Source: a virus
Taxonomy: Duplodnaviria > Heunggongvirae > Uroviricota > Caudoviricetes
Length of the DNA stretch: 50,019 nucleotides
IMG/VR virus record: IMGVR_UViG_3300047560_001314
Direction: 5' to 3' (one strand)
The position numbers were made by a program, and so were the translations under genes. The notes under the pieces are model-generated. The model did no database searches and had not been told where the DNA came from. It saw nothing but the letters and a program-made list of their open reading frames with translations. Shown one piece after another: positions 6,310 to 34,542 of this stretch (positions are counted from its first letter, which is position 1; every line of letters begins with the position of its first letter).

Positions 6310-7032
6310 ATGGCTGACGATATCAATTTAAACGGACCCTATAACACCAAGATGCCTGCCTATAATCAAAAGGCAGACATCCAAGAGGCATTGAAGTTGT
6401 TCCTATATGGAGATGGAAATCTACCAACTACTAGTTCTGAAATATCATCAGTATCTTTAGCAGGTCATTTAAAGACTCTTCAAGAAGGCATAGATACTTT
6501 AGATGCCAGAGGACTTGGATCTGAAGTTCTTTCTACTCAGCCAACTGGAGTCCCAGACGGTTTTATTTGGGTTGATTCAACTGCTTCAGCAAATAGCATT
6601 TCTGTTCCTATGTGGAAAATAAAGAGCAGCGGAAGTTTGTCTGGCGAATCTCTCTCAGTATCTTCTTTAAATGGAGAAAAACTATTTATTATTCTAAAAG
6701 ACTGGAGCCATGATAATTCTGGCTCAGTTGATTTCTCTTTAAGGTTTAACGGAGACTCTGGTCCAAACTATGTTAATACTGGCGGGTTAGTTTCTGCAAG
6801 TCATTTAAGTTCCCCAGAATTTCCAACAAGCGGAACATATGATATGACCGTTTCTGTTGATTTAGCAAATACAGCATCAGCATTGAAGCCAGTATCAACA
6901 ATTGCAGATATTTCTGCAGGATCTTATTTTGGTTATTACAAAAATACATCGCCTATTACATCTATTCAAATTATTCTTCCGTCAGGTACATCTTTTGACT
7001 CTGGATCATATGAAGTTTGGAGTTACGAATAA
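6310..7032 (+). CDS. Hypothetical tail fibre-like protein
   Basis: 240 aa; S/T/G-rich; PTGVPDGFIWVD fibre-linker-type motif. Confidence 0.65.
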   Translation: MADDINLNGPYNTKMPAYNQKADIQEALKLFLYGDGNLPTTSSEISSVSLAGHLKTLQEGIDTLDARGLGSEVLSTQPTGVPDGFIWVDSTASANSISVPMWKIKSSGSLSGESLSVSSLNGEKLFIILKDWSHDNSGSVDFSLRFNGDSGPNYVNTGGLVSASHLSSPEFPTSGTYDMTVSVDLANTASALKPVSTIADISAGSYFGYYKNTSPITSIQIILPSGTSFDSGSYEVWSYE

Positions 7033-7801: not shown

Positions 7802-9208
7802 ATGCTAAATTTTGGGTTCTCGGCATCAAAGGGTATGGTAAGGGTACCAGACCTTTCAGGATTATCAAAAGAAGATGCTATTCTAGCAATTGCAGCAGCA
7901 AGTCTGATATATGTTGACGGAGGCTCTACAGGAACAAGTAATTCTTCTTTGGATAATATAGTTGCTTCACAACTACCAAATGCAGATGAACTTGTTGATT
8001 ATGAAACCGATGTAACATTTATTTACTATGATTATGTTGGTGTCACACCAGTAACTCCAGTTACCCCAGTTACACCTGTTACACCTGTTACTCCAGTAAC
8101 TCCTGCAACTACTGTATATTGGTCGACAGGCTGTTGTAGCACAGCAAACACTCAAGTAACAGGAACAAGCAATGTAAGTCTTGCAAATGCACAAGACAAC
8201 ATGGACTCATTTTGTGTTACAGGGACAATATCTAACATTCAGACTGGATCTTACACAGGCACATCAAATATACCGACGCTAGACTGTTCAGTTCAAGTTA
8301 CACCAGTCACTCCAGTAGACACTACACCAAATTGGGTTGAAAGTTATAGCGAGTACCGTGCAGCATGCTGTGGAGTTGTTACAATCTATGTAGATAATAA
8401 CCCAAATTCAGCAACCTACAATACAGAAAAATACAATCCTTGTTCAAATGGATGGACATACAACGATCCATGTCCAGTTACTCCAGTTACACCAGTAACT
8501 CCTGTAACTCCAGTTACGCCTACACCAGTTTGTACTCCAACAACATATACAGAAAATAGAATTTGTAATGGCATCTCTACTCCAGTAACAATTACTGTGG
8601 CAGCAGACTGTACAGAAACTTACGATTGTCCGCCTGTATCAGTTACTCCAGTTACACCAGTAACTCCTGTAACTCCAGTTACGCCTACGCCAGTTTGTAC
8701 TCCAACAACTTACACAGAGAACAGAATTTGTAATGGAACATCTACATCTGTTACAATTACTGTAGCAGCAGATTGTTCTGAGACATGGGATTGCCCACCA
8801 GCACCTGTAACTCCTGCAGTAACACCTGTAACTCCTGCAGTAACACCTGTAACTCCTGCAGTAACACCTGTAACTCCTGCAGTAACACCTGTAACACCAT
8901 GTACTCCAAATGTTTCAAGTTATAATGAATATAGAGCAGCATGCGGAACTACTGTAACTATTTATGTTGACTCTTGTGGAAATGAGACATATACTTGTCC
9001 TGTAACTCCAGCAGTAACTCCAGCAGTAACTCCAGCAGTAACTCCAGCAGTAACTCCAGCAGTAACTCCAGCAGTAACTCCAGCAGTTACACCTCCATCC
9101 TGTACAGTTGGTGCTATTTGTGAAACTGCTACAAATCCAGAAAATTGCATTGTTTTCTACACCTACGACAGTTCCTGCCAGTGTGTACAGGCATCAACCT
9201 ATTGCTAG
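7802..9208 (+). CDS. PASTA-domain, VTP-repeat, Cys-rich protein (mucin-like putative virion surface protein)
   Basis: N-terminal VPDLSGLS...VASQLPNA...V PASTA pattern; VTP/VTPA tandem repeats; duplicated Cys modules. Confidence 0.75.
   Translation: MLNFGFSASKGMVRVPDLSGLSKEDAILAIAAASLIYVDGGSTGTSNSSLDNIVASQLPNADELVDYETDVTFIYYDYVGVTPVTPVTPVTPVTPVTPVTPATTVYWSTGCCSTANTQVTGTSNVSLANAQDNMDSFCVTGTISNIQTGSYTGTSNIPTLDCSVQVTPVTPVDTTPNWVESYSEYRAACCGVVTIYVDNNPNSATYNTEKYNPCSNGWTYNDPCPVTPVTPVTPVTPVTPTPVCTPTTYTENRICNGISTPVTITVAADCTETYDCPPVSVTPVTPVTPVTPVTPTPVCTPTTYTENRICNGTSTSVTITVAADCSETWDCPPAPVTPAVTPVTPAVTPVTPAVTPVTPAVTPVTPCTPNVSSYNEYRAACGTTVTIYVDSCGNETYTCPVTPAVTPAVTPAVTPAVTPAVTPAVTPAVTPPSCTVGAICETATNPENCIVFYTYDSSCQCVQASTYC
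8804..8887 (+). repeat. 21-bp tandem repeat x4 (PVTPAVT)
   Basis: CCTGTAACTCCTGCAGTAACA, four perfect copies. Confidence 0.95.
9002..9085 (+). repeat. 12-bp tandem repeat x7 (VTPA)
   Basis: GTAACTCCAGCA, seven perfect copies. Confidence 0.95.
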
Positions 9209-13217: not shown

Positions 13218-15296
13218 ATGGCAACAGTAAATAAAGATTTTAAGATTAAGAGTGGCCTTATCGTTGAGGGTACATCTGCTACAGTTAACGGTAATCAAGT
13301 TCTTACAGAAAATGCATCAGATCAATACATCATTGATTTGATTGGTGGACAAACACTCATTACTTCCGTTGAAGCAACACAGATGGAAGTTATCAATGGT
13401 GAACTAAATGTTAAGTCTGGAGTATTTGATGCAGACGGTGCAGCAGCACAGGCACTTACAGATGCTAACTCTTACACAGACGGTGAAATTATTACAGCAC
13501 TTAACACTGCTCAGGGATATGCAGATACAGCAGAGGCTGACGCAAAGTCATATGCTGATGGTCTTGCTACCAACTACGATCCAGCAGGTTCTGCTACAAC
13601 AGCAGAAAACAATGCAAAATCTTACGCTGACGGTCTAGCATCAAACTACGATCCAGCAGGTTCTGCTACAACAGCAGAAAACAATGCAAAATCTTACGCT
13701 GACGGTCTAGCATCAAACTACGATCCAGCAGGCGCAGCAGATACAGCATATAACAATGCAGTATCAGCAGCAGCACAAGATGCTACAACAAAGGCTAATA
13801 ACGCTGAGTCAAATGCAAATGCTTACACAGATGGTGAAATTACTACTGCTCTTACCACAGCACAGGGGTACGCAGATACAGCAGAAGCAAATGCTAATGC
13901 ATACACAGATAATGCTGTCTCTGGTCTCAACTGGAAGCAAGCAGTAAATCTTCTCTACGATGCAGCAATTCCAGTACTATCTGGCTCTGGCGCAACACAA
14001 CTTGCTGTTGATGGACACACAGTGCTTGGAGATGCAGATAGCGGATATAGACTTCTTCTTACTGGTGTAACAAGCCCTGGTATCTATGTTTACAATAGCA
14101 CAGGTGGATCTTGGACACTTACTCGTACCGAAGATGCAGATACATTTGAGGAACTTGTCGGAGCAGCAGTTTATGTTATGGAAGGAACTCAGTATGGCTC
14201 AACCTCTTGGGTTCAGTCAAATCACTACCTAACTGGTTTCTCAGGACAGACATGGACACAGTTCTCAGGTCAAGGTTCCATAACAGCAGGTTCAGGTATC
14301 ACAGTAGACGGTCTTGAAGTTTCTATTAACCGTACAACTGTTGATAACTGGTACGATGCAGCAGGAGATGCAGCAGATGCTCAAGCAGCAGCAGAAGCAT
14401 ACGCTGACAGCCTTGCCCCTAACTATGACCCAGCAGGATCTGCTCAAGGTGCATATAACAACGCAGTTACATATGTAGATGGCGAAATCACAACAGCACT
14501 TAATACTGCTCAAGGTTACGCCGATACAGCAGAACAAGATGCTAAGAACTATGCAGATGCATTAATTGTTGATGGTTCAGCAAGCACAACAACTGTTTGG
14601 TCATCATATAAGACAAGCACAGAAATTGGACTTGCAGAGTCTAATGCTAACGATTACACAGATACATCAATCAATAACCTTGATACAGATGATATTGAAG
14701 AAGGTGTAAATAACCTCTACTTCACAGATAGCCGTGCATCAAACGCAGCAGCAACACTTTTAACAAATGCATCAACAACAAATATTACTATCACAGGTGA
14801 TTCAGTTAATGGTCTTGTTATTACTGCAGAAAATGGTGTAGCAGATTCTACAACTGATGATCTCGATGAGGGTTCAACAAACCTCTACTTCACAGAACCT
14901 CGTGTTCTTACTGCAGTATCTGGAAGTGACATCACACCAGCATCAGTAGAAATCAGCAACTACCGCAAGGAAGAAGCAACACAGCAATATGTTGCATCAG
15001 CCTCAACTGTAAATGTTCACTCATTTGCATACCCTTACGAATCAGTTAAGTATCTTGTTCGTGTAGTTGGTTGGGATGGTGGAGTTAAGCACTCACAGAT
15101 TACAGAAATTCTTATGACGATTGATGGAAATGGAAACATTGCTATATCTGAATACGGAATGGTTCATACATCTACAGCACCACTTGCAACATTCTCAGCA
15201 ACAGTCAACAATACACTTCCAACACTTACTGCAACAACAGCAGTTTCTGGTTGTGAGATTGTTGCAGCAGCAACAATGCTCTCTTGGGCAGACTAA
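13218..15296 (+). CDS. Long tail fibre-like protein with A(K/E)xYAD coiled-coil repeats
   Basis: 692 aa; AAGGAG RBS; NYDPAG and YAD repeats; DDxxEGxxNLYFT repeats. Confidence 0.8.
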   Translation: MATVNKDFKIKSGLIVEGTSATVNGNQVLTENASDQYIIDLIGGQTLITSVEATQMEVINGELNVKSGVFDADGAAAQALTDANSYTDGEIITALNTAQGYADTAEADAKSYADGLATNYDPAGSATTAENNAKSYADGLASNYDPAGSATTAENNAKSYADGLASNYDPAGAADTAYNNAVSAAAQDATTKANNAESNANAYTDGEITTALTTAQGYADTAEANANAYTDNAVSGLNWKQAVNLLYDAAIPVLSGSGATQLAVDGHTVLGDADSGYRLLLTGVTSPGIYVYNSTGGSWTLTRTEDADTFEELVGAAVYVMEGTQYGSTSWVQSNHYLTGFSGQTWTQFSGQGSITAGSGITVDGLEVSINRTTVDNWYDAAGDAADAQAAAEAYADSLAPNYDPAGSAQGAYNNAVTYVDGEITTALNTAQGYADTAEQDAKNYADALIVDGSASTTTVWSSYKTSTEIGLAESNANDYTDTSINNLDTDDIEEGVNNLYFTDSRASNAAATLLTNASTTNITITGDSVNGLVITAENGVADSTTDDLDEGSTNLYFTEPRVLTAVSGSDITPASVEISNYRKEEATQQYVASASTVNVHSFAYPYESVKYLVRVVGWDGGVKHSQITEILMTIDGNGNIAISEYGMVHTSTAPLATFSATVNNTLPTLTATTAVSGCEIVAAATMLSWAD
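13572..13732 (+). repeat. 72-bp perfect tandem duplication (24 aa, NYDPAGSATTAENNAKSYADGLAS) x2 plus partial
   Basis: Copies start at 13572, 13644 and 13716. Confidence 0.9.
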
Positions 15297-15362: not shown

Positions 15363-15821
15363 ATGGCAACAGTAGAAAAAGACTTTAAGGTCAAAAATGG
15401 CTTAGTCGTTACAAATGGCGGTACATTCGGAGATTCTGTATCTGTAGGAGAGCCAACATTAGACGGACACGCTACTACTAAACTCTATGTGGATAACCTA
15501 GTTGGTTCATCTACAATGACAGTAGGATCTACTGCCCCTTCTTCACCAGCAAATGGCCAACTATGGCTTGATACAGTAACAGAAAGAGTTTATTTTTTCT
15601 ATCAAACAGCATGGCTACCATTGGCAACTTTGGCAGATGCTGAAACATTACAGAACCACATCCACGATACATCAATTGATGGAAACGGTTTAATAGTCAG
15701 CGTTATTGTTGATGCTGGCTTCTATAATTCTGCAGGTGTTCTAACAGATGCTGGTACATACGACCTAACATCTTGGAATACTCTATGGGATGGTGGAATT
15801 GCAATAGATAACTTCAACTAA
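15363..15821 (+). CDS. Fibre-related virion protein
   Basis: N-terminus MATVEKDFKVKNGL matches MATVNKDFKIKSGL of 13218; APSSPANGQLWLD linker. Confidence 0.75.
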   Translation: MATVEKDFKVKNGLVVTNGGTFGDSVSVGEPTLDGHATTKLYVDNLVGSSTMTVGSTAPSSPANGQLWLDTVTERVYFFYQTAWLPLATLADAETLQNHIHDTSIDGNGLIVSVIVDAGFYNSAGVLTDAGTYDLTSWNTLWDGGIAIDNFN

Positions 15822-17607: not shown

Positions 17608-18891
17608 ATGGCAGCAGGTAAGAAATCAGGTAGAAAGTCCCAAGCGTCAAATGACTTCTTGGAGCCACTAGCACCAACAGGCGTAACTGGAACAGATGTT
17701 GGAACAGGAAGAGCCTACAATGATGGCGCTGTCTCTGTATCCTTTTCATTACCAGCACTTTCGCCTGCTGCTACATCCTATACAGTCACAGCAAGCACAG
17801 GACAAACAGCAACTGGATCATCTTCTCCAATTACTGTAACTGGTCTTGCTTCTACATCAACACCAACATTTACAGTAACAGCAACAAATGCTGCAGGAAC
17901 CTCTCAGGCTTCTTCTGCATCTGCTGCAGTAACAGTAACAACAGTTCCAGCAACACCATCAGCCCCAACCGCTACCGCAGGAGTTGACCAAGATACTGTA
18001 TCATGGACAGCATCAGCAAATGGTGGAAAGGCTATTACTGGCTACACCTGGGCATCATCTGACTCAAAAACTGGTACTACGACATCTACATCTGTTGTTG
18101 TAACACAAGAGGGTAACACTTCTCAGACATATACAGTTTATGCAACAAATGCTAATGGAAACTCAGCAACTTCTCCAGCATCAGCATCAGTTACTACAAC
18201 TCCACCATTCTTCCCACCGTTCTTCCCACCGTACTTCCCATACTTCCCATTTTTCCCACCGTTCTTCCCACCATTCTTTCCGTTCTTCCCACCGTTCTTC
18301 CCACCGTACTTCCCATACTTCCCATTTTTCCCACCGTTCTTCCCACCATTCTTTCCGTTCTTCCCACCGTTCTTCCCAAGTTTTATCATCCCTTGGTTTG
18401 GCCCACCGTGTGTTGAGGAAAACACACTGATTGATACACCTAACGGACAGATTCCTGTAAAGAATCTACAAGTTGGAGATGTAATCTGGTCAACACCTAT
18501 CAGTGAGTTGGATCCTTCAGAACCAGATTGGCAAAAGTATGCCTGGTCTGCAAACCAACTAACAACTGGTGAACTAGTTGAGACAACAATCACAGCAATG
18601 GAAGTTGTTGAAGAGTCAGATATCATTTGCTTCAATGGAAACTCTGATATCAGAATCACTTTCACACAGCCAATATTTGTGAAGACAGTCAACAATCAGT
18701 ACAAGATTAAAGAGGCATACTACGTAGAAGTTGGCGAAAGTCTCATAGTTCTAGACTCAACTGGTCAAAAGGTTGAAGTTCCTGTAACAAGTATTGAGCA
18801 CTTCACAGATGAAGTAGTAAATGTATATCAACTATCATGCGAGCCTTATGACTGGTTCTTTGTAAGTGGTATACTAGTACACAACAAGTAA
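17608..18891 (+). CDS. FnIII x2 - (Pro/Phe/Tyr)59 - Hint (intein-like) domain protein
   Basis: FnIII patterns (PLAPTGVT..., SYTVTA, YTVYATNANG); P/F/Y tract; Hint from CVEENTLIDT...LQVGD to VYQL...FFVSGILVHNK. Confidence 0.85.
   Translation: MAAGKKSGRKSQASNDFLEPLAPTGVTGTDVGTGRAYNDGAVSVSFSLPALSPAATSYTVTASTGQTATGSSSPITVTGLASTSTPTFTVTATNAAGTSQASSASAAVTVTTVPATPSAPTATAGVDQDTVSWTASANGGKAITGYTWASSDSKTGTTTSTSVVVTQEGNTSQTYTVYATNANGNSATSPASASVTTTPPFFPPFFPPYFPYFPFFPPFFPPFFPFFPPFFPPYFPYFPFFPPFFPPFFPFFPPFFPSFIIPWFGPPCVEENTLIDTPNGQIPVKNLQVGDVIWSTPISELDPSEPDWQKYAWSANQLTTGELVETTITAMEVVEESDIICFNGNSDIRITFTQPIFVKTVNNQYKIKEAYYVEVGESLIVLDSTGQKVEVPVTSIEHFTDEVVNVYQLSCEPYDWFFVSGILVHNK
18202..18378 (+). repeat. 59-codon Pro/Phe/Tyr-only tract with a 75-bp perfect duplication
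   Basis: Unit FFPPFFPPYFPYFPFFPPFFPPFFP at 18208-18282 and 18283-18357, plus a 21-bp partial. Confidence 0.95.
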
Positions 18892-18913: not shown

Positions 18914-19582
18914 ATGTCAGTCGAAAACCACGACGGTATACTCCCTGCCTCATCTATAAGCAGAGAAATACTTATGCCAGGAATGGTACTTTATAAGAAT
19001 ATTTTTCCTGCGGGTATTAAAGTTATAGAAGATCTTGAGGGTGTATTATCTGACGGAAGTAACTATAAGTGGAGCCAGGCCATGGTTGGTAATAGACAAA
19101 GGGTTCCTGAATATAGAGACTGCCTAGATTTTAAATTTAAAAAATCTACAATTGTAGGAACGGATGAAAAATCTGAAACAATTAGACAGTCTTGGCAGTA
19201 CCTACACGATCAAATGAATTCTGCTTTGCAAGACTATTGCACACTCTATCCAATGGAGCCATTAGAATACTGGGAATCAATAAACTTTATTAAGTATTAT
19301 CCAGGCAATCACTTTGAGTCCCATGCAGACGACGGTGCATCCTACAAGGCTGTAGTTTCATTAGTTGGATATTTGAACGATGACTACGAAGGTGGAGAAA
19401 TTTCTTTCCCAGCACATGGAATTACGATCAAGCCAGAAGCAGGAGATCTAGTTATTTTTCCATCAAACTATATGTTTATGCATAAAGCAATGCCAGTAAT
19501 TAGTGGAGTAAAATACTCTATTGTTACTATGTTAGATTATAATGAAAAATTTCACACACAGAGGTTTTATTATGGAAAGTAA
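18914..19582 (+). CDS. 2OG-Fe(II) oxygenase, P4H-like (array 1)
   Basis: HADDG, YLNDDYEGGE, H...KY. Confidence 0.9.
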   Translation: MSVENHDGILPASSISREILMPGMVLYKNIFPAGIKVIEDLEGVLSDGSNYKWSQAMVGNRQRVPEYRDCLDFKFKKSTIVGTDEKSETIRQSWQYLHDQMNSALQDYCTLYPMEPLEYWESINFIKYYPGNHFESHADDGASYKAVVSLVGYLNDDYEGGEISFPAHGITIKPEAGDLVIFPSNYMFMHKAMPVISGVKYSIVTMLDYNEKFHTQRFYYGK

Positions 19583-20117
19583 AGAGTTGGCTTTAGGGAT
19601 AAGACTGTACAGTGGAGTAGAATTACCATGTAAGGAAACTATCTTAGGTTTGGATTTTGAAGGGGCTACAAAGGAAAGCGTTATTGTCAATGATGAATTC
19701 AGAGCAGACTATAGTTCCAGGATCACGCTATCAATTGATGTACCATATATTAATAAAGATAACAATCAGTTTACAGATATTTTTAGACAAACCTTTGACC
19801 CAGTAGAACAAGACTATATGTCTATACATGGAATATCCTTAAAATCTCATAACCCATATAAAATATTAAAGTATGAGGTCGGTGGTAAATTTGATACACA
19901 CATGGACGATGGTGGGGGAAACTTTAGAAGAGTTTCTACTGTATATTATTTAAATGATAACTATGAGGGTGGAGAACTATGCTTCCCACAATTTGGCATA
20001 GAACTAAAGCCAAAGGCGGGAGATATGGTTGTTTTTCCATCATCCTATGTATATTCACATAGTGTCAAACCAGTAACATCAGGAAATAGATTTTCTATTG
20101 CAAGTTGGCTAAAATGA
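19572..20117 (+). CDS. 2OG-Fe(II) oxygenase, P4H-like (array 2)
   Basis: HMDDG, YLNDNYEGGE, H...RF; start moved to ATG 19572. Confidence 0.9.
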   Translation: MESKELALGIRLYSGVELPCKETILGLDFEGATKESVIVNDEFRADYSSRITLSIDVPYINKDNNQFTDIFRQTFDPVEQDYMSIHGISLKSHNPYKILKYEVGGKFDTHMDDGGGNFRRVSTVYYLNDNYEGGELCFPQFGIELKPKAGDMVVFPSSYVYSHSVKPVTSGNRFSIASWLK

Positions 20118-20608
20118 TAGAGACAGTTAGAACCTTTGCCAATGGCGAAGACCTCATTGATATAAAAGAAAAGATTGATAAGGTTCTTCCATTAAATAAA
20201 TTTAATGATGTTCCGAACTGGTCCACCGATGCTATTAGCGCAGATCAGATCTATAGAATACAAAAGTTTGTTGGCAGAGTAGTCGAAGAAACAGGTGTTA
20301 TTTTGCAGAGCCAGGTTATTGATCGATTTAATAATACAAACAAAGTGTTTCCATACATGATACAACTTATTAAGATAGATAGAAATACCTTTAGTACAGA
20401 TATTATTGTAGAGGATCAAATATGTCAAACCATAACACCACTCAAAAATGAGTGTAAGACATATATTTTAATTAATAACTCTGGAAATGTTGTAGTTCCA
20501 GATCTAGTCGATGGAGACTATGCTATAGCAGCATACTGGACCGAATACAGAGATCTAAGATATAAAAACTGGTTTATAGGAAAGTATTTTCAGCGATATG
20601 TTGGATAG
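20114..20608 (+). CDS. Hypothetical protein, possibly a degenerate oxygenase-fold protein
   Basis: ATGA coupling; oxygenase-like N-terminal layout and terminal AIAAYW, but no HxD or H ligands. Confidence 0.6.
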   Translation: MIETVRTFANGEDLIDIKEKIDKVLPLNKFNDVPNWSTDAISADQIYRIQKFVGRVVEETGVILQSQVIDRFNNTNKVFPYMIQLIKIDRNTFSTDIIVEDQICQTITPLKNECKTYILINNSGNVVVPDLVDGDYAIAAYWTEYRDLRYKNWFIGKYFQRYVG

Positions 20609-21068
20609 ATTCGTCATTGAAGATTTTTTATCTCAAGAAGATTGTCATAGTCTTATTTCTGCATGCAATGAAAATGACTGGGTTGATAAAGGCGGAAACT
20701 CAAAGGTATTTATTCAAAAGACAACAAGACACGATATTATAAAAAAAATACATAAAGGCCTAAGTGAAATGTTTGACGATCACTACCACATACAGTTAAT
20801 AAGAATGGTTCATAAAACAGACTCAGAGTCTTTTTGGGAAGAGCATACAGATAGGTCTGACCACAAGGTAACAAGAGACATTGTTTATGGAGTTATAATA
20901 TATCTAAATGATGATTTTTCTGGTGGTACTTTAGACTATAGCGATATGTCTATTACCCCAAAAACAGGAATGCTTGTCTGCCATCCTGGAGACATGCTTC
21001 ACAAAGTATCAAAGGTAGAAGATGGTCAAAGATATACGCTAACTACATTTATTAGGAGTAAGAGTTGA
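20598..21068 (+). CDS. 2OG-Fe(II) oxygenase, P4H-like (array 3)
   Basis: HTD, YLNDDFSGG, H...RY. Confidence 0.9.
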   Translation: MLDRFVIEDFLSQEDCHSLISACNENDWVDKGGNSKVFIQKTTRHDIIKKIHKGLSEMFDDHYHIQLIRMVHKTDSESFWEEHTDRSDHKVTRDIVYGVIIYLNDDFSGGTLDYSDMSITPKTGMLVCHPGDMLHKVSKVEDGQRYTLTTFIRSKS

Positions 21069-21844
21069 GCACTGATATTAAATCTCCAAAGGTGAGGATA
21101 TGTGAAAACTTCATATCAACTGAAGTCTGTGACTTTTTAATAAAATATGCAGAATCCAATGACATTTGGTCACAATTTAATAATTCTGTTAAAAAGCATA
21201 ATTTTAGTGACGAGCATGATCACATGTCAGCATTGAAGCAATGGGATAACAGAAGGGTTGATATTAATGAATTGTATGCACAAGGCATGGGAAAAAGAAA
21301 AGAGTTGTTTGATATAGTTCTTCCACTACAGTATCGGATGCATGACGAGGTTGTTGATTTTTTAAAGCCAGATTTTGATTTGCACAGCGAACTATGGGAA
21401 ATTGTTAGATGGAAAGAGGGAAACTTTCAGGAGCCACATGTAGACCACATTGATCCAGATTTTGACTTATCAACGATAGACCTTGATTCAGTACCAGAAG
21501 AGTGCAAATATTTTTTTGAGGAAAGAAATATTGAGAAGTACAAAAAATTATTTACTAACAAGGCCTTTACCTCTATTATTTACCTTAATGATGATTATCA
21601 GGGTGGAGAACTTTATTTTCCACAGCACAACTCATTTCAAATAAAGCCAAAAAAGGGAACAATGCTAATCTTCAGCGGTACTATTGATAATATGCATGGC
21701 ATTAAAGAAGTAACTGGTGGAACTAGATATACACATGTTACATTTTGGTCTAATAATATATCTAAGTCTAGCAAGATTGCTTTTGATAAAAAGGTTAATC
21801 GTTTAGTGGTAGACGACAACCATAAGCCCGTAATAGATAGTTAA
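21065..21844 (+). CDS. 2OG-Fe(II) oxygenase, P4H-like with insertion (array 4)
   Basis: HVD, YLNDDYQGGE, H...RY; TTG start overlapping the previous stop. Confidence 0.9.
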   Translation: MSTDIKSPKVRICENFISTEVCDFLIKYAESNDIWSQFNNSVKKHNFSDEHDHMSALKQWDNRRVDINELYAQGMGKRKELFDIVLPLQYRMHDEVVDFLKPDFDLHSELWEIVRWKEGNFQEPHVDHIDPDFDLSTIDLDSVPEECKYFFEERNIEKYKKLFTNKAFTSIIYLNDDYQGGELYFPQHNSFQIKPKKGTMLIFSGTIDNMHGIKEVTGGTRYTHVTFWSNNISKSSKIAFDKKVNRLVVDDNHKPVIDS

Positions 21845-21846
21845 AA

Positions 21847-21875
21847 TTGACAAAATGCATAGATCATGCTATACT
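21847..21875 (+). promoter_or_regulatory. Near-consensus sigma70 promoter TTGACA-N17-TATACT inside the oxygenase array
   Basis: TTGACAaaatgcatagatcatgcTATACT with extended -10 TG. Confidence 0.85.
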
Positions 21876-21895
21876 TTACTAAAGGGAGAAAACCT

Positions 21896-22663
21896 GTGAA
21901 CAATATAATTTCTTTTATGTCTAATAGGCCTTGGCTTAAAAAAGACAGCAAGTCGGCACCAACACCAATGATTAAATCAATTCCAGATTGGTACAGAGAG
22001 GCAGATCGATTTGCTAAAATGCCTAATGGAGAGTTTTACAAAGCACCTAAAGAAATATGTCCGTATCCAAAAGAGGGTACGACAGATGACTATGGAAAGA
22101 TCCCGACTTGGAAGGCCTGCCCATCAGTGTTTGATATTATGGGCACAGGATACTCCCTTAATCTACCATGCGATGTTGAGTTTATACAAAAAGATGAAAA
22201 TACTTTGATTGTAAATATTGAAGATAGACAGTATAAAGATTTTGTTACACCAAGACCACCAATGCCACAGTTTAAGCATCCAATGGGATATCATGAAAAT
22301 CACTTTGCTTGGTTTTATGATTGGGGTATTAAAACTCCAGAAGGCTATAGCAGTTTGATTACTCAGCCATTTAATAGGTTTGAATTACCATTTTTAAACA
22401 CCTCTGGTATAATTGACACAGACAGGGTTCATTTTCCAGGATCTTTACCATTCTTTATTGTTAAAGGCTGGTCAGGTGTGCTTAAGGCTGGAACTCCTTT
22501 TGCACAGGTTCTTCCCTTCAAAAGAGAAGATTGGTCATCTGATTTATCAATAGAGAATCCAATGAATATGTATACACGCAATAAAGAGAATTCTGAGTTT
22601 TATAGAGTCCCAGATGGAGGGGTTTATAAAAACAAGGTATGGAGCAGAAGGAGATACGAATAA
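21896..22663 (+). CDS. dUTPase-fold-like protein (DUF6065-related)
   Basis: TWKACPSVFD...GY, KTPEGYS, SGIIDTD, KAGTPFAQV; GTG start after GGGAG. Confidence 0.6.
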   Translation: MNNIISFMSNRPWLKKDSKSAPTPMIKSIPDWYREADRFAKMPNGEFYKAPKEICPYPKEGTTDDYGKIPTWKACPSVFDIMGTGYSLNLPCDVEFIQKDENTLIVNIEDRQYKDFVTPRPPMPQFKHPMGYHENHFAWFYDWGIKTPEGYSSLITQPFNRFELPFLNTSGIIDTDRVHFPGSLPFFIVKGWSGVLKAGTPFAQVLPFKREDWSSDLSIENPMNMYTRNKENSEFYRVPDGGVYKNKVWSRRRYE

Positions 22664-23391
22664 TGACAGTATATGACGAAAATGCAAATCCCTGGTTTAC
22701 AAAAGATAGATCAGAGACAGCATCTAATAGAGTTGAGCCAAGACAATTAAAAGATAATATTGTTGCTGAAAATCTTGGACTTGGGCTACATGTGTATCAT
22801 AAGACCTTCTCAGTAGAAGATGCAGATAGATATATCAATACGCTTGAGTCTAATTTGTCTGGGGACAAGCAATATAAGTGGTCAGAGGCAAAAGTAACAA
22901 ACTCAGATGCTCCAATCAAGAAGGCTAGAGATGCTGTAGATTTTAAATACAAGCAAGAAAATCTTGGTCCAAGAAATGAAAATAATGCAGAACTATTAGA
23001 TCTACATGAGGAAATTTATCAAAAGTTAAAATACTGCATAGATGACTATGCCCAGTACTGGGGAATAAATGTTGTTTATTATGAAGCCTTCAACTTTGTA
23101 AAATATGAGGGCCAGGGAACACACTTTAATATCCATGCTGATCATGGTCCAGCATACAACTGTACAGTATCTGCAGTAATCTATATTAATGACGACTATG
23201 AAGGTGGAGACTTAAAATTCCCACGACTAGATAATCTGGTCTATAAGCCAAAGGCAGGAGATATTGCTGTATTCCCATCTAACTATATTTATGAGCATGC
23301 TTCTCTTCCAATGGAGTCTGGAACAAAGTATTGCGTAGTAGTTATGACAGATATTAATGAACTAGGTCACCAACAAGTTAGGAGCATGTAA
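22663..23391 (+). CDS. 2OG-Fe(II) oxygenase, P4H-like (array 5)
   Basis: HADHG, YINDDYEGGD, H...KY. Confidence 0.9.
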   Translation: MTVYDENANPWFTKDRSETASNRVEPRQLKDNIVAENLGLGLHVYHKTFSVEDADRYINTLESNLSGDKQYKWSEAKVTNSDAPIKKARDAVDFKYKQENLGPRNENNAELLDLHEEIYQKLKYCIDDYAQYWGINVVYYEAFNFVKYEGQGTHFNIHADHGPAYNCTVSAVIYINDDYEGGDLKFPRLDNLVYKPKAGDIAVFPSNYIYEHASLPMESGTKYCVVVMTDINELGHQQVRSM

Positions 23392-24062
23392 TGCAAACAT
23401 GGACAGAAAAAATTGATCACGGCAATGGTATATTTTGCTACAAGAATGTGATCAAAAAAGATATTGATGTAATCAACAGACTTGAGTCAAGTTTAGGGTC
23501 AGTTGCTGGATACGGAGAACTGTCTGACGAAGGAAAGCAGTACCATTGGCATCCAGCCTATGTCGGTTATAAGCAACTTATGCCAGACTACCGTGACTGT
23601 GTAGATTTTAAGTTTAAGAAGACCGATATAGAGTTAGATAAAAGCCAAACATCGCTAGACTTGCAGGCACTTTGGCAAGACCTATACGATGTAAAGTTGC
23701 CTGTTGTACAAGATTATTCTAAGATGTACAACATTAATAATCTTCAGTATTGGGAAGCATTTAACTTTATTAAGTATGGTCCAGGTCAGCACTTTATGGA
23801 GCATCACGACCATGGCTTTTCTTATAACTGTACAGTTTCTTTGGTAGGATATCCAAATGATAACTATGAAGGCGGAGAGTTATTCTTTAGACTTCAGGGG
23901 CTAAAGATTAAGCCAGAGGCAGGGGATCTTTTTGTATTTCCTTCAAACTACATGTATCCACACCAAGCAATGCCAGTACATTCTGGGGTAAAGTATTCAA
24001 TTGTGACAATGCTAGATTACAATAAGAAGTACCATACTCCAGAGATGTATCAGGAGCAGTAA
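23391..24062 (+). CDS. 2OG-Fe(II) oxygenase, P4H-like (array 6)
   Basis: HHDHG, YPNDNYEGGE, H...KY; close paralog of 18914..19582. Confidence 0.9.
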   Translation: MQTWTEKIDHGNGIFCYKNVIKKDIDVINRLESSLGSVAGYGELSDEGKQYHWHPAYVGYKQLMPDYRDCVDFKFKKTDIELDKSQTSLDLQALWQDLYDVKLPVVQDYSKMYNINNLQYWEAFNFIKYGPGQHFMEHHDHGFSYNCTVSLVGYPNDNYEGGELFFRLQGLKIKPEAGDLFVFPSNYMYPHQAMPVHSGVKYSIVTMLDYNKKYHTPEMYQEQ

Positions 24063-24778
24063 TGTTCAATATAAAAGTGGAAAAGACACCTGACTCACTA
24101 TTCAATATTGAGCCAATGTCTATAAAAAGAGACTGGATGGATCTAACATCAGAAAACCATGCCTATCGTTGTTTTCCAGTTACTCAGTCTAATGTGATAG
24201 GATGGAATCTTTCCTGTACAGAGGATGTATCTTTTGAGTGGAATGGAGTTAATGACCAGTCTCCAGATACTGTAAAGATATTCAGCCCAGCGGGATCTTA
24301 TTCTGGCAGAGGTCAATCATCTATAAGTCTTAATACAGGTCTTTATTTCAGAACTGATCAAGATGTTAGTATCTGGACTATTAACCCAGTTAACTATTTT
24401 AGTAATGAGTTTGAAACGATGTCCTCTCTAATGACAACATCTTTTTACGATAATCCACTTCCGTTAGCACTAAAAGCAAAGGCTGCAAATCGTGTTGTTA
24501 CCATTAAAGCAGGAACACCGCTTGCAACAATTATTCCAATATCTCTAACAAATCTTAACAATACAGTTATCGAGATTAATAGATACATGGATCCAGATAG
24601 AAAAAGACAAGAGGCAAACATGTCTTATGGTCAAGCATCACAAGTTGTAAACTCTTCTGGTGAATGGACAGACTGGTACAGAAATGCTGTTAATGAAAAG
24701 GGTGAGTCTTTAGGTACCCACGAAGTAAAAACCCTAAAACTAGGAGTAAAAAATAATATGAACGGTGATATAATATGA
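24062..24778 (+). CDS. DUF6065-like protein (dUTPase-like fold)
   Basis: RDWMD...HAYRCFPVTQSNVIGW, KAGTPLATIIP; family name recalled, not searched. Confidence 0.65.
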   Translation: MFNIKVEKTPDSLFNIEPMSIKRDWMDLTSENHAYRCFPVTQSNVIGWNLSCTEDVSFEWNGVNDQSPDTVKIFSPAGSYSGRGQSSISLNTGLYFRTDQDVSIWTINPVNYFSNEFETMSSLMTTSFYDNPLPLALKAKAANRVVTIKAGTPLATIIPISLTNLNNTVIEINRYMDPDRKRQEANMSYGQASQVVNSSGEWTDWYRNAVNEKGESLGTHEVKTLKLGVKNNMNGDII

Positions 24779-25461
24779 GCATGGAGCAAAATAAAGATCA
24801 ATATTCAGTAGTTCAGAGAACGCCATCCCTTACGCCTTCTGGCTGGTTTGGTGACAGCAAAGATATGATCGTAGAGTTAGAAAATTTCATGACTCCTGAA
24901 GAAATTGAGTTCTTGGAAAAGGCTGCAAAGTCTATTACAATTTGGGATGTTACTCAAAGCCATGTTAATGAAAATGGAACAGTTGTCTACGACTCAGATT
25001 ATTGGAAAGACAGAGTTGCAACAAGTCCAACACTAGACAAGAACGATCCTGCAGTTGCGCCCGTGATTGCTGGTTTATTTCAAAGATTAAAGCCAATTGT
25101 CGAAGAGTTCTATAAAGTAGAAGTGGTTCCAACTGGAACAACTATTGTAAGATGGCTTCCTGGTCAATTCCAAAGACCACACGCAGACAAAGAGTTACAT
25201 GAGGGTCCAGATGCTGGAATGCCTAATGATTTCCCACATTATGACTTATCAAGTTTATTCTATTTAAATGATGACTACGAGGGTGGAGAGTTATACTTTC
25301 CATTGCAGGATGTCAAGTTCAAGCCTAAAAAGGGTGCAGCGTATTTCTTCCCAGGAGATAAAAATTATATCCATGGGGTCACTGAGATAAAGAGTGGAAT
25401 TAGATATACTTGCCCATTTTTTTGGGAGATTACAAAGCATACAGGAGAGAGACAGCCATGA
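24775..25461 (+). CDS. 2OG-Fe(II) oxygenase, P4H-like (array 7); start may be 24781
   Basis: HAD, YLNDDYEGGE, H...RY. Confidence 0.9.
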   Translation: MSMEQNKDQYSVVQRTPSLTPSGWFGDSKDMIVELENFMTPEEIEFLEKAAKSITIWDVTQSHVNENGTVVYDSDYWKDRVATSPTLDKNDPAVAPVIAGLFQRLKPIVEEFYKVEVVPTGTTIVRWLPGQFQRPHADKELHEGPDAGMPNDFPHYDLSSLFYLNDDYEGGELYFPLQDVKFKPKKGAAYFFPGDKNYIHGVTEIKSGIRYTCPFFWEITKHTGERQP

Positions 25462-26204
25462 ATCTAAGCAATAAGAAGAGAATAACAAAAGATATTGTTG
25501 TTTATGAAAACTTTTTAGATGCAGAAACATCTGCTAAGATTATTAAGGTTTTAGATAAGCATGCAGAATTAGGTGGTATCTCATGGATGCCAATTTCATT
25601 TTATGAATCATACTCTTCTGTATTGCCACAAGATGATGATGCAGAGGTAATCGCTGAAGGATTGCCAGCAACAATCTTCTCCGATATCGAAAATATAATG
25701 CCAGAGGCAGTTGCTTCAGTTCACGATCTTGATCCAAAAACAATTTGCAAGATTGGCTATCATACACAAAAGTGGGAGCCAGGAGCATATGCAAGAAAGC
25801 ATTCAGACAATACAGATGACAAGGGTAACTCTGGTGCATTTACTAGAAGTAGGTATGCAGGATTTTTGTATCTTAATGATGACTTTGAGGGTGGCCTTTT
25901 AAGATTCCCAGATAATGATATTGAAATCAAGCCACAGGTGGGAATGCTTGCAGTATTCGACGGTGGATTTAACAATATGCATGAAGTTACACTAATAACA
26001 AAGGGTATTCGATACACGATTGGTTCTTTCTGGGATGATAGAGAAGAGTCTGCCTATCCACAGGAACTAAGAGATGCTTGGGCTGAAGAGATGAAGCAAA
26101 CTAGAGCACAACAAGAAATTGAAAGAGCAGAGTGGCAAGGACTGCTTAAAGAAGGTTATAAGTTGGACGATAAAGGCAATAAGTATAGGGTAGAGGATCT
26201 ATAA
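25458..26204 (+). CDS. 2OG-Fe(II) oxygenase, P4H-like (array 8)
   Basis: HSD, YLNDDFEGG, H...RY; ATGA coupling. Confidence 0.9.
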   Translation: MNLSNKKRITKDIVVYENFLDAETSAKIIKVLDKHAELGGISWMPISFYESYSSVLPQDDDAEVIAEGLPATIFSDIENIMPEAVASVHDLDPKTICKIGYHTQKWEPGAYARKHSDNTDDKGNSGAFTRSRYAGFLYLNDDFEGGLLRFPDNDIEIKPQVGMLAVFDGGFNNMHEVTLITKGIRYTIGSFWDDREESAYPQELRDAWAEEMKQTRAQQEIERAEWQGLLKEGYKLDDKGNKYRVEDL

Positions 26205-26867
26205 ATGGAAGTTTTTTTGAAAAAAGAATTAGAGGCCAGCGGTTTCAAACTTGATGTACTACATGACCATGTTGTAGTCGTAGAAGACTTTTTGTCAAAA
26301 ACAGAACTTGATTTATTGCTAGATATTATTGCAACAACAAAAGAAGAAGATTGGTCTATCGAGTACAAGAGAAGCCTTGCTGAATTTTGCATGGAAAAGT
26401 TTGGTAGGGATGATGTTGACAATCTTGTTGCTGAGGGTAAGTATGAGATTACCAAAGGTTGGGATGATAAAAACCTAGACATTGGTAAGCGAGATGTTAG
26501 CAGAACACTTCAAAAGAGACTTGGGGATATTCTTGCTTTGGCAGACAATACACTAGAACTTGCTGGATTTGCAACTCTTCAAAGAATGCAGTCTGGAGTT
26601 CAATTGAAGTCTCATACTGATCAACACACCGATCCATCAATTAGATATGCTGCAATAGTCTATCTTAATGATGACTATGTAGATGGAACACTGTTCTTTA
26701 AAAATATAGAGAACTCTGATTTAAGACCAAAGCCAGGTTCATTGCTTATATTTCCAGGAAATGAAGAATATGAGCATGGTGTAAGGCATGTTGGTGAAGG
26801 CCCAATCAGATATGTGGTTGTTGGCTTTATCAAGGTTAAAGATTTTTACAAGAATAATAAATACTAG
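26205..26867 (+). CDS. 2OG-Fe(II) oxygenase, P4H-like (array 9)
   Basis: HTD, YLNDDYVDG, H...RY. Confidence 0.9.
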   Translation: MEVFLKKELEASGFKLDVLHDHVVVVEDFLSKTELDLLLDIIATTKEEDWSIEYKRSLAEFCMEKFGRDDVDNLVAEGKYEITKGWDDKNLDIGKRDVSRTLQKRLGDILALADNTLELAGFATLQRMQSGVQLKSHTDQHTDPSIRYAAIVYLNDDYVDGTLFFKNIENSDLRPKPGSLLIFPGNEEYEHGVRHVGEGPIRYVVVGFIKVKDFYKNNKY

Positions 26868-26876
26868 GGGGATAAA

Positions 26877-27581
26877 ATGAATAGACAAATTCTAGAAGAA
26901 AAGGTTTATTACTACGAAGATGGAGTAAAAGACTTTGAGCAGTTGATGAAGACTATCGATGAACTTGATAGCCTTGATGCAGATACTGGAACATCCTCTT
27001 GGCATGACTGGACGGCTTCAAATGACAAAGATTTTATTTATGGATCAACAAAGACATTTGACATAAATCAAATTAATAAGTTGGATGAGCCGTATAAGTC
27101 AAAGATGGCATTTGTTTATAAGACAATCATGGATTCATTTTATGATGTTTCTAAGGATTATGCAACTGCACTTGGTGATAATGATGAGCCAAGACTTTTC
27201 CCAACCTTTAATATTAAAAAGTATAAAAAAGGAACATCTATGGGTGCTCACTTTGATCAACTAGATGGAGACCAAACTCTGAGATATTCTTTAGTTATGT
27301 ACCTAAATGATGATTTTGATGGTGGAGAGATTTCTTTCACTATGTCTGACTATGCTGGTATTCTAAATAAGCAAACACCGCATCCAGACTATGATCACCC
27401 AGATAATGCTAAGTTAATGGATTTTTCAATCAAGCCAAAAGCAGGCAGCATTATTATTTTCCCATCGTCAGCACCATATCATCACACTGCTCACCTTGTA
27501 AAGAGCAAGTTTAAGTATATGGTTCCAGGACACTGGATTCATAATAATATGGATTTCTATCGTTCCTCTGGCAGCATGTAG
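26877..27581 (+). CDS. 2OG-Fe(II) oxygenase, P4H-like (array 10)
   Basis: HFD, YLNDDFDGGE, H...KY. Confidence 0.9.
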   Translation: MNRQILEEKVYYYEDGVKDFEQLMKTIDELDSLDADTGTSSWHDWTASNDKDFIYGSTKTFDINQINKLDEPYKSKMAFVYKTIMDSFYDVSKDYATALGDNDEPRLFPTFNIKKYKKGTSMGAHFDQLDGDQTLRYSLVMYLNDDFDGGEISFTMSDYAGILNKQTPHPDYDHPDNAKLMDFSIKPKAGSIIIFPSSAPYHHTAHLVKSKFKYMVPGHWIHNNMDFYRSSGSM

Positions 27582-28243
27582 TGAAAACAGCAATCGTAAC
27601 TGGCGCCAGCAAAGGCGTTGGTTTAGCAACTGTAAAACTTTTATCTGAAAGTGGATATCGGGTTATAGCAGTCTCACGCAATCTGTCTAAGGTTTCTGAA
27701 CTAGTTTCTGATAATGTTGAAGTTTATCAAATGGACATTGCAAATGAAAAAGAGATAGAGAAATTTTATGAAAAGTATCGGGGCATAACTTTGGATCTTT
27801 TAGTAAATAATGCGGGCGGTGGATCAGCACCAACAAACATTATTAGTGAAACAATGGATAATTTTAAGCGGGCCTACGAGATTAATGTCTCTGGTCCAAT
27901 GTATCTATCACAACTATTTGTTTCAGCAATGCAGAAGTCAGAATCTCCAACAATTATATTTATTAGTTCTTTGGGTGGAAAGTTTGCATATCGTGGTGGA
28001 GGAAACTACACTAATGCCAAAAGAGGACAGATGGCTCTAGTTGACACTATGAGGTTAGAGTTTCCAGATTATGGTATCAAGGTAACAGAGATATGTCCTG
28101 GAACAATAGACACACAAGAACAAAAAAGAAATGCTGCATTAAATGCAGAAGACTTAGCAGAATCAATTCGTTGGGTTGCAAGTTTGCCAAGTCATGTTAA
28201 CATTAACCATATAGAATTAAACCATATTCTAAGTGGTAAATAG
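27581..28243 (+). CDS. Short-chain dehydrogenase/reductase (classical SDR, YdfG-like)
   Basis: TGASKGVG, NNAG, YxxxK (YTNAK), ICPG; GTG start overlapping TAG. Confidence 0.9.
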   Translation: MKTAIVTGASKGVGLATVKLLSESGYRVIAVSRNLSKVSELVSDNVEVYQMDIANEKEIEKFYEKYRGITLDLLVNNAGGGSAPTNIISETMDNFKRAYEINVSGPMYLSQLFVSAMQKSESPTIIFISSLGGKFAYRGGGNYTNAKRGQMALVDTMRLEFPDYGIKVTEICPGTIDTQEQKRNAALNAEDLAESIRWVASLPSHVNINHIELNHILSGK

Positions 28244-34137: not shown

Positions 34138-34542
34138 ATGAACTTAGAAAATCCAAATAAAAAGCGTAAGAACTTGCCCAAAATGAAGGGTCAAGTTGGA
34201 GAATCCCGTGTTAAGGTTATTGAAAAGCATTATGACTGGGGCCTATATGTTTACAAGAAGGCCGATGGTAAGTGGTTCACTGACGGTACTGGATCTGTTC
34301 TAAACATTGAATCCATGAAGGGTGATATTTCTGCTATCTCTAAGTTGAAAGATGCAGCAAAATATTACGGGGATCCAGGAGATGGAACATGTGTATTTGT
34401 TCCAGGACTTACAAGAATTACAGAAGAAGAATACTCTGAGCAAAAGCAAAGACTTGCAGAAGGCCTTATTCCATCTATGAACGACCTTGGTGCTTGGAAG
34501 GCTGCTCAAGATACATACAATAAGTATGGAAGTGAAGACTAA
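34138..34542 (+). CDS. Conserved-looking hypothetical protein upstream of portal
   Basis: ORF track; likely leaderless start 7 nt after TGGTATACT. Confidence 0.75.
   Translation: MNLENPNKKRKNLPKMKGQVGESRVKVIEKHYDWGLYVYKKADGKWFTDGTGSVLNIESMKGDISAISKLKDAAKYYGDPGDGTCVFVPGLTRITEEEYSEQKQRLAEGLIPSMNDLGAWKAAQDTYNKYGSED

Follow-up and report, generated by a model that had tools for sequence, protein, structure and literature searches.

Analysis of a 50,019-nucleotide stretch of IMG/VR virus record IMGVR_UViG_3300047560_001314 (here called the window) revealed a 427-residue protein in which two FnIII domains and a tract made up only of proline, phenylalanine, and tyrosine are followed by a C-terminal Hint domain. 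The window belongs to a 71-kb IMG/VR viral contig that is ~64% complete and probably comes from a freshwater metagenome assembly; among sequencing runs, only the probable source sample, a freshwater metagenome, contained the stretch, and no RNA run was listed for it. The sequence evidence tips the balance slightly toward a role for the Hint domain as a self-removing end-piece of the bacterial intein-like (BIL) type on an accessory fiber or adhesin protein encoded by a tailed phage from freshwater that is uncultured. The features of the gene are as follows.

17608 to 18891, forward strand: whole gene, 427 amino acids plus stop, 45.8 kDa, with the layout FnIII-FnIII-(P/F/Y repeat)-Hint, defined by the open reading frame and its translation.
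17608 to 17667, forward strand: basic N-terminal peptide, residues 1 to 20 (MAAGKKSGRKSQASNDFLEP), conserved as M..KK.GRKS...NDFL.P in FnIII-type relatives.
17668 to 17937, forward strand: FnIII domain 1, about residues 21 to 110, from a Pfam fn3 match on residues 38 to 105, an AlphaFold2 predicted local distance difference test (pLDDT) score above 90, and Foldseek matches to tandem FnIII structures.
17947 to 18195, forward strand: FnIII domain 2, about residues 114 to 196, an AlphaFold2 beta-sandwich with pLDDT above 90, with Foldseek tandem-FnIII matches spanning ~200 residues.
18202 to 18378, forward strand: Pro/Phe/Tyr tandem repeat, residues 199 to 257, 59 amino acids in the original assembly (28 F, 27 P, 4 Y), from TRF and a composition count.
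18379 to 18408, forward strand: junction SFIIPWFGPP, N-extein residues −10 to −1, leading to the prospective scissile bond Pro267/Cys268, with IPWFGPP/CVEENT kept in nearly all relatives of the clade.
18409 to 18885, forward strand: Hint (BIL-like) domain, residues 268 to 426 (159 amino acids), from AlphaFold2, Foldseek, profile comparison with the PDB, and column conservation.
18409 to 18411, forward strand: Cys268, the first Hint residue, at the domain start after GPP.
18658 to 18669, forward strand: block B, T351-F-T-Q354, with Q354 in the column of the TxxH histidine of relatives and of BIL domain 2lwy.
18880 to 18885, forward strand: His425-Asn426, the end of the Hint domain, in VHN-K-stop.
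18886 to 18888, forward strand: Lys427, the sole C-flanking residue, followed by the stop codon.

By both structure prediction and profile comparison, the C-terminal domain is a real Hint fold of the intein/BIL kind. An AlphaFold2 model of the domain alone, built with 94 relatives, had a pLDDT of 93.4. Its top Foldseek match was BIL2 structure 6y75 (E 1.9e-8), followed by BIL domain 2lwy (the third-ranked match but the second distinct structure), mini-inteins, and Hedgehog 1at0; 62 PDB matches had E values of ≤1e-3, and the best 50 of these 62 were all BIL domains, inteins, or Hedgehog. When a profile made from the same 94 sequences was compared with the PDB, 2lwy ranked first at E 8e-18 and the next match had E 1.6e-11, CDC21-1 inteins being the next best. 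The domain scored below the Pfam cutoffs of Hint_2 (PF13403, 24.0 versus 28.4 bits) and Intein_splicing (PF14890, 19.6 versus 35.8 bits), and the window protein did not reach the curated gathering threshold of PT-HINT (PF07591). Among the 94 relatives, 64 touched Intein_splicing, 23 touched Hint_2, and 21 touched PT-HINT at E ≤0.01; the domain is a clan member outside current Pfam family models. An earlier note on this DNA, made from the letters alone, had staked its proposal on a Hint fold, which profile and structure prediction both returned, and had placed its boundaries correctly, from Cys268 after GPP to the VHN-K-stop end of the translation.

This domain belongs to a large family that keeps its catalytic residues. 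An exhaustive HMMER search recovered 327 cluster representatives (50% identity) at E ≤1e-3, of which 50 were at ≤1e-10. Column counts below refer to 94 aligned domains, counts of domain starts and of residue −1 to 107 domains, and counts of position to 98 single-Hint representatives. Cysteine was present at 107 of 107 domain starts (C90/S3/T1 in the aligned column), and the block-B Thr/Ser in 93 of 94 domains; 91 had an Asn nine residues upstream of it, 72 the block-F Asp, and 85 the terminal His-Asn, and these residues were kept at sequence identities down to ~25%. In 93 of the 98 representatives the Hint lay at the extreme C terminus, with no more than 20 residues after it. Because the domain is the last element of the protein, only the N-terminal reaction can change the product.

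The comparison with homologs that the earlier note had proposed put BIL domains first, returned varying repeat types, and clarified the unusual block B. Alignment with relatives and with 2lwy upheld the reading of this block as TFTQ, in which Gln replaces His, so that the window protein has the fold and the first-residue nucleophile of the HINT superfamily and Gln354 in place of the TxxH histidine. This column was H48/Q37/E7/D1/A1 across the 94 relatives. The Gln-type subset, which includes the window protein, retained Cys1 in 37 of 37 members and the terminal Asn in 30 of 37, which argues against a dead domain; since Gln-type relatives keep the nucleophile, Gln at block B is a recurrent variant rather than decay. 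A catalytically attenuated enzyme, as once suggested for this protein, is possible but not required by a substitution (Gln or Glu) found in 44 of 94 relatives with the nucleophile kept. The block-B His can be dispensable or compensated in other systems; CDC21-1 inteins naturally lack it, and inteins with such a natural loss are known to function (PMC6333167).

The aromatic/Pro repeat, junction, terminal Hint, and Lys together form a portable C-terminal cassette found on many fiber-like N-terminal parts. Carriers among related freshwater phages include proteins with two FnIII domains, PASTA proteins, Cys-rich/PT-linker proteins, tail-fiber-like proteins, and large FnIII arrays. In 50 of the 98 representatives, at least 25% of the 40 residues before Cys1 were aromatic, compared to 9.5% in the rest of the same proteins, and another 11 were Pro-rich at this position. 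Repeat types were lineage specific within a common layout (PPFF, PPGFFA/S, FGFTP/FGAFGFTP, YSFTP, and PPHF), most relatives having FGFTP- or YSFTP-type rather than PPFF repeats. In the window's clade the junction IPWFGPP/CVEENT was kept almost throughout, even in proteins of 680 to 1,000 residues with tail-fiber-like N termini, PT/VTP linkers, and Cys-rich modules that had only ~10 to 15 aromatic/Pro residues.

Nine IMG/VR contigs carried two cassette genes, and both genes of one genome had the same repeat type and junction; the window genome has one cassette only. In contig L007 the two Hints were 48% identical to each other versus ~25 to 28% identical to same-type Hints of distant genomes. 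Strict within-genome homogenization was considered and rejected, as orthologs among close genomes were 88 to 94% identical and within-genome pairs 68 to 78%; covariation of the two cassettes of a genome shows only over longer distances.

The proposed route to self-removal begins with folding of the Hint, after which an N-to-S acyl shift at Pro267/Cys268 would make a thioester. Resolution of this thioester, by default through hydrolysis, would detach the 18-kDa Hint and leave a 27.7-kDa FnIII-FnIII protein with a C-terminal Pro/aromatic tract ending in WFGPP, and His425-Asn426 could cyclize and clip off Lys427. Self-removal is the default reading because BIL domains, which have no nucleophile at +1, give mainly cleavage products (PMC7664689). 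The conservation of Cys1, complete in the Gln-type subset as in the whole family, favors the earlier proposal that the Hint releases or ligates the FnIII portion, and catalysis itself, the occurrence and timing of cleavage, and the role of the exposed aromatic tail are all inferred from sequence.

The virion setting of such an end-piece has a precedent in function. By analogy, the closest counterpart in role would be the peptidase S74 chaperone domains, self-detaching C-terminal modules that assist low-complexity phage fiber proteins and leave after assembly (PMC7824862). Their fold and chemistry are unrelated (a Ser-Lys dyad versus a Cys thioester), and the window protein, which has a Hint fold, matched S74 neither in Pfam or PHROG searches nor by sequence or fold comparison. 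A related Hint also ends tail or virion proteins annotated as “containing intein domain” in two cultured jumbo phages, Erwinia phage Y3 (gp110) and Phage NCTB (BN7874_136). These proteins matched the family profile at E 1e-26 to 1e-35, with tblastn identities of 26 to 33% and the same Hint clade at the C terminus, and BFVD models of phage Hint proteins matched at TM scores of 0.82 to 0.92. They differ from the window protein in keeping the block-B His, in having tails of 8 to 10 residues, and in lacking an aromatic repeat, and they are known as annotations only. The same domain also occurs in UniProt entries from “uncultured Caudovirales phage” that have automatic FnIII, PASTA, and Hint protein names. 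PHROGs assigned no family to the whole 427-residue protein, and the C-terminal part alone matched phrog_38766, “virion structural protein.”

Several observations weigh against self-removal. In canonical inteins, as known from intein engineering, a Gln at block B and a Pro at −1 both slow the N-terminal reaction. The earlier note was right that residue −1 is Pro and that the C-extein nucleophile is missing, position +1 being Lys rather than Cys, Ser, or Thr; across 107 members, residue −1 varied (G24, F11, R10, P10, and others). That the thioester is hydrolyzed is assumed, and a more specific fate is hinted at by the conservation of the Lys behind His-Asn. The case for incorporation into the virion comes from gene neighborhood and from annotations of distant relatives. 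In addition, the genomes of relatives and of phage NCTB include genes for stand-alone Hint-like proteins without the Cys1 strand, so the Hint fold can serve a noncatalytic role in these phages. These proteins (L008:4623-5198, L003:478-1095, L006:436-1008, L060:10501-10860, and, in L002 [Phage NCTB], 6489-6950) gave E values of 3e-8 to 5e-21 against the family profile.

The stand-alone proteins are ~150 to 205 residues long and start at profile position 13 to 16. Each is encoded immediately behind a PASTA or tail gene that bears a cassette, and none occurs in the window. In the NCTB copy the C terminus is still ILVHNKVD.

Such Cys-less copies beside cassette genes, together with Gln at block B and Pro at −1, are also what would be expected if the Hint were noncatalytic and stayed attached as a structural tip or as a module for docking or receptor binding, the aromatic repeat being its stalk and the Cys and His-Asn being kept for structural reasons. 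Terminal domains of fiber proteins are commonly binding or docking modules. We nevertheless regard this explanation as unlikely: a structural domain is not expected to keep its nucleophile at every one of 107 domain starts and its terminal Asn in 85 of 94 at 25 to 40% overall identity, and the closest solved relatives are all autoprocessing domains.

Of particular interest for the fate of the thioester is the residue that follows the Hint. After His-Asn, K or R was found at +1 or +2 in 77 of 94 relatives, with a single K at +1 in 42 of 94. This Lys is suggestive because the top structural match, BIL2 of the Tetrahymena thermophila BUBL (BIL-ubiquitin-like) locus (6y75/6tmm; TM score, 0.67 to 0.74), passes its thioester to a Lys epsilon-amine, forming an isopeptide and conjugating its N-terminal flank to other proteins without ATP (PMC8616854). 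Sequence identity between the two is only 17%. In contrast to the window Hint, which has no acceptor domain after it, BUBL BIL2 comes from a eukaryote, lies between ubiquitin-like domains, and has its block-B histidine (His69), to which a part in catalysis is ascribed.

Tandem-Hint proteins provide another setting for this Lys (P0036, P0059, P0063, P0064, P0070, P0080, P0088, P0109, P0113, and P0122). In these proteins of ~450 to 1,130 residues, 2 to 6 Hints of the same clade are joined by ...VHNK-GGG(G)-C(F)... junctions, the Lys after His-Asn being conserved. They look bacterial, and several begin with a hydrophobic N-terminal segment, possibly a signal peptide.

The Hint could accordingly be imagined as a single-turnover ligase, in which the Cys268 thioester would be captured by an amine and the Hint would leave, the acceptor being Lys427 (BIL-style splicing or isopeptide formation), a virion-protein Lys, or a host-envelope amine. 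The conservation of K/R at +1/+2, bacterial VHNK-GGG-C junctions included, points to a role for the Lys, N-terminal hydrolysis alone would hardly account for the conserved terminal Asn, and two cassette genes per genome with a common repeat and Hint type would fit a shared acceptor. On the other hand, five or six relatives without His-Asn (tails ..VIS and ..IA) keep Cys1, so that some can do without the C-terminal step; Asn cyclization would set free a Lys that diffuses away unless held; and sequence does not tell ligation from hydrolysis, the acceptor still being hypothetical. We consider capture by an amine the main rival to self-removal, but rather unlikely. Decidedly unlikely, in our view, is its more elaborate form, a built-in, single-use ligase in which the fiber C terminus would be stored as a latent thioester and then passed to an amine, with the aromatic/Pro tract as spacer or recognition element; phages would then fasten adhesin modules covalently without enzyme or ATP, as a phage counterpart of BUBL-type conjugation. 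Candidate acceptors could be the adjacent conserved Lys, a virion-protein Lys, or a host cell-wall amine, for which PASTA-bearing relatives could point to peptidoglycan.

Comparisons of sequence and model place the window Hint in the HINT superfamily closest to the A-type BIL domains (Amitai et al. 2003; Dassa et al. 2004; 2lwy of Clostridium thermocellum). It shares with these, its closest sequence relatives, a small Hint (159 contiguous residues) with no homing-endonuclease insert, an N-terminal Cys, a C-terminal His-Asn with no C/S/T at +1, and an occurrence on variable, nonconserved, nonessential surface-type carrier proteins rather than at a conserved site in an essential enzyme, here with at least four unrelated N-terminal architectures. 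The A-type domains are usually internal, with a real C-terminal flank that is often a toxin. Here there is no cleavable or spliceable C-terminal polypeptide, and the domain differs in its terminal position, its block-B Gln, the one conserved Lys behind it, and its coupling to an aromatic/Pro repeat on phage fiber-type carriers. The same terminal position, with Lys at +1 and no C-extein, sets it apart from canonical inteins. Hedgehog proteins (1at0; fold match, E 9.5e-6) resemble it in having an extracellular-type N-terminal part, a C-terminal Hint that acts only on its own N-terminal junction, and a hydrophobic C terminus. The window protein, however, ends one residue after the Hint and has no sterol- or adduct-recognition region and no GCF junction; it has the His-Asn that the Hog domain lacks, and its hydrophobic tail is gene encoded rather than an added lipid. 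In the literature on C-terminal Hint domains of phage tail or fiber proteins, only true inteins (in terminase, RNR, and similar genes) were found, and no functional study.

Few natural roles are known for BIL/Hint domains outside inteins and Hedgehog, and the clade described here, with 327 representatives at 50% identity, serves as a terminal end-piece on the fibers and adhesins of freshwater phages that are abundant and uncultured. It is recognized by a distinctive combination of an aromatic/Pro repeat, a conserved junction, His, Gln, or Glu at block B, and His-Asn followed by Lys. If cleavage occurs, it would be a second, independent solution to the self-removing fiber cap known from S74, one that leaves an unusually hydrophobic C-terminal tail. 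If ligation occurs, it would allow enzyme-free building or anchoring of virion appendages and might offer a tool for protein engineering. In either case, the natural series of His, Gln, and Glu at block B with the nucleophile kept is a test set for scissile-bond activation without that His.

The tract that precedes the Hint is a P/F/Y run far beyond chance. The earlier count of 59 consecutive P, F, or Y residues was exact, although the repeat copy number, and hence this figure, is that of the original assembly, since independent Logan contigs of the probable source sample break within the repeat (at ~18237, 18283, and 18349) and none spans it. At the DNA level, the repeat has a 75-bp period and 2.3 copies that are 100% identical (TRF score, 342). 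Measured up to Cys1 with the junction included, the aromatic/Pro stretch is 70 residues long in the window and 65 to 102 residues in close FnIII-type orthologs, which have near-identical N termini and Hints that are 82 to 94% identical. The repeat had pLDDT values of 38 to 55 in the AlphaFold2 model and is predicted to be disordered as a monomer. A complex prediction with three copies of residues 190 to 427, in which a fiber-like trimer was sought, gave a score of 0.00, which without controls speaks neither for nor against such a trimer.

Several other contigs of the same freshwater sample overlap parts of the repeat (18202 to 18378) with different unit types, such as a loose end that translates to a GFFAPPGF-type unit. 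Because of these contigs, related phages with other repeat variants seem to co-occur in the sample.

The gene lies in a neighborhood whose order is kept in relatives: a PASTA protein, a reverse-strand SLT lysozyme-like gene, a cement-like protein, a fiber of 520 to 690 residues, a 152-residue protein, a fiber with an Mtd_N domain, the FnIII-Hint gene, a variable block, ribonucleotide reductase (RNR), a protein of ~1,200 residues, portal, and prohead protease. The FnIII-Hint gene thus comes after two fiber genes, one of them with the Mtd_N domain. In the window, the variable block (18914 to 28243) consists of 14 short genes between the FnIII-Hint gene and RNR, namely, ten 2-oxoglutarate (2OG)-Fe(II) oxygenases of the prolyl 4-hydroxylase type (PF13640), one weak oxygenase match, one gene without a family, and two DUF6065-like genes, with a short-chain dehydrogenase (SDR) at its end.

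This array begins 23 bp after the FnIII-Hint stop codon, and 46% of the P/F/Y tract is proline, which would fit the idea that the oxygenases hydroxylate the tract, including the prolines at −1 and −2, and so gate Hint cleavage, or that the tract is a multicore peptide resembling those of ribosomally synthesized and posttranslationally modified peptides. Chlorovirus prolyl 4-hydroxylases act on viral Pro-rich repeats, and the window, L003, L006, and L008 each have a 2OG oxygenase as the second gene after the PASTA (or PASTA-Hint) gene. However, syntenic relatives L003, L006, and L007 have one to three genes in the variable slot after the orthologous gene; only one of these matches anything in the window and none is a recognized 2OG oxygenase, so the array is a lineage-specific expansion rather than a conserved partner of the cassette. 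In L007, which has two cassette genes, no gene with a recorded 2OG-oxygenase family was found in the 21 kb around the cassettes. Pro occupies −1 in just 10 of 107 family members, most repeats are not of the PPFF type, and long-fiber relatives retain only the ~10 to 15 aromatic/Pro residues described above. Modification of the tract by these enzymes, in either form, is very improbable, and the gating by proline hydroxylation put forward in the earlier note found no support.

Upstream, the 692-residue fiber-like protein (13218 to 15296) and the 152-residue protein (15363 to 15821) have a common N-terminal motif, MATV.KDFK.K.GL.V, which may be a shared virion-attachment segment. The 152-residue protein was 57 to 76% identical across relatives, above the surrounding fibers. 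At 7802 to 9208, the window encodes a 468-residue protein that combines a PASTA domain with VTP repeats and Cys-rich modules and ends without an aromatic repeat and Hint. Its modules recur in the cassette-bearing fibers of 680 to 1,000 residues in close relatives L018 to L027, and it is a natural cassette-less relative of these proteins.

DNA searches with the gene and with a 12-kb neighboring stretch found no match among cultured phage genomes, and the phage has no close cultured relative. The portal (34542 to 36143) shares 47 to 48% identity with its counterparts in 120- to 130-kb Streptomyces phages such as BillNye and Circinus. This similarity and the PASTA domains weakly hint that the host is Gram positive or actinobacterial; a search of the 71-kb record for WhiB (PF02467), as a further hint of an actinobacterial host, gave no match.

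The N-terminal half of the protein agrees with the two FnIII domains originally proposed, through the AlphaFold2 model and through Foldseek, in which the best matches were tandem FnIII structures at E 2e-9. Membership in Pfam fn3 is narrow (25.2 bits against a cutoff of 25.0), with two stretches on residues 1 to 200. The basic peptide before the first domain had low pLDDT. The gene starts with an ATG codon and has an AGGAG Shine-Dalgarno sequence 7 nucleotides 5′ of it, and full-length homologs of the 427-residue protein have the same N terminus. An antisense open reading frame (18138 to 18695) and another in the +2 frame (18140 to 18430) overlap the gene and are most likely by-products of the repeat.

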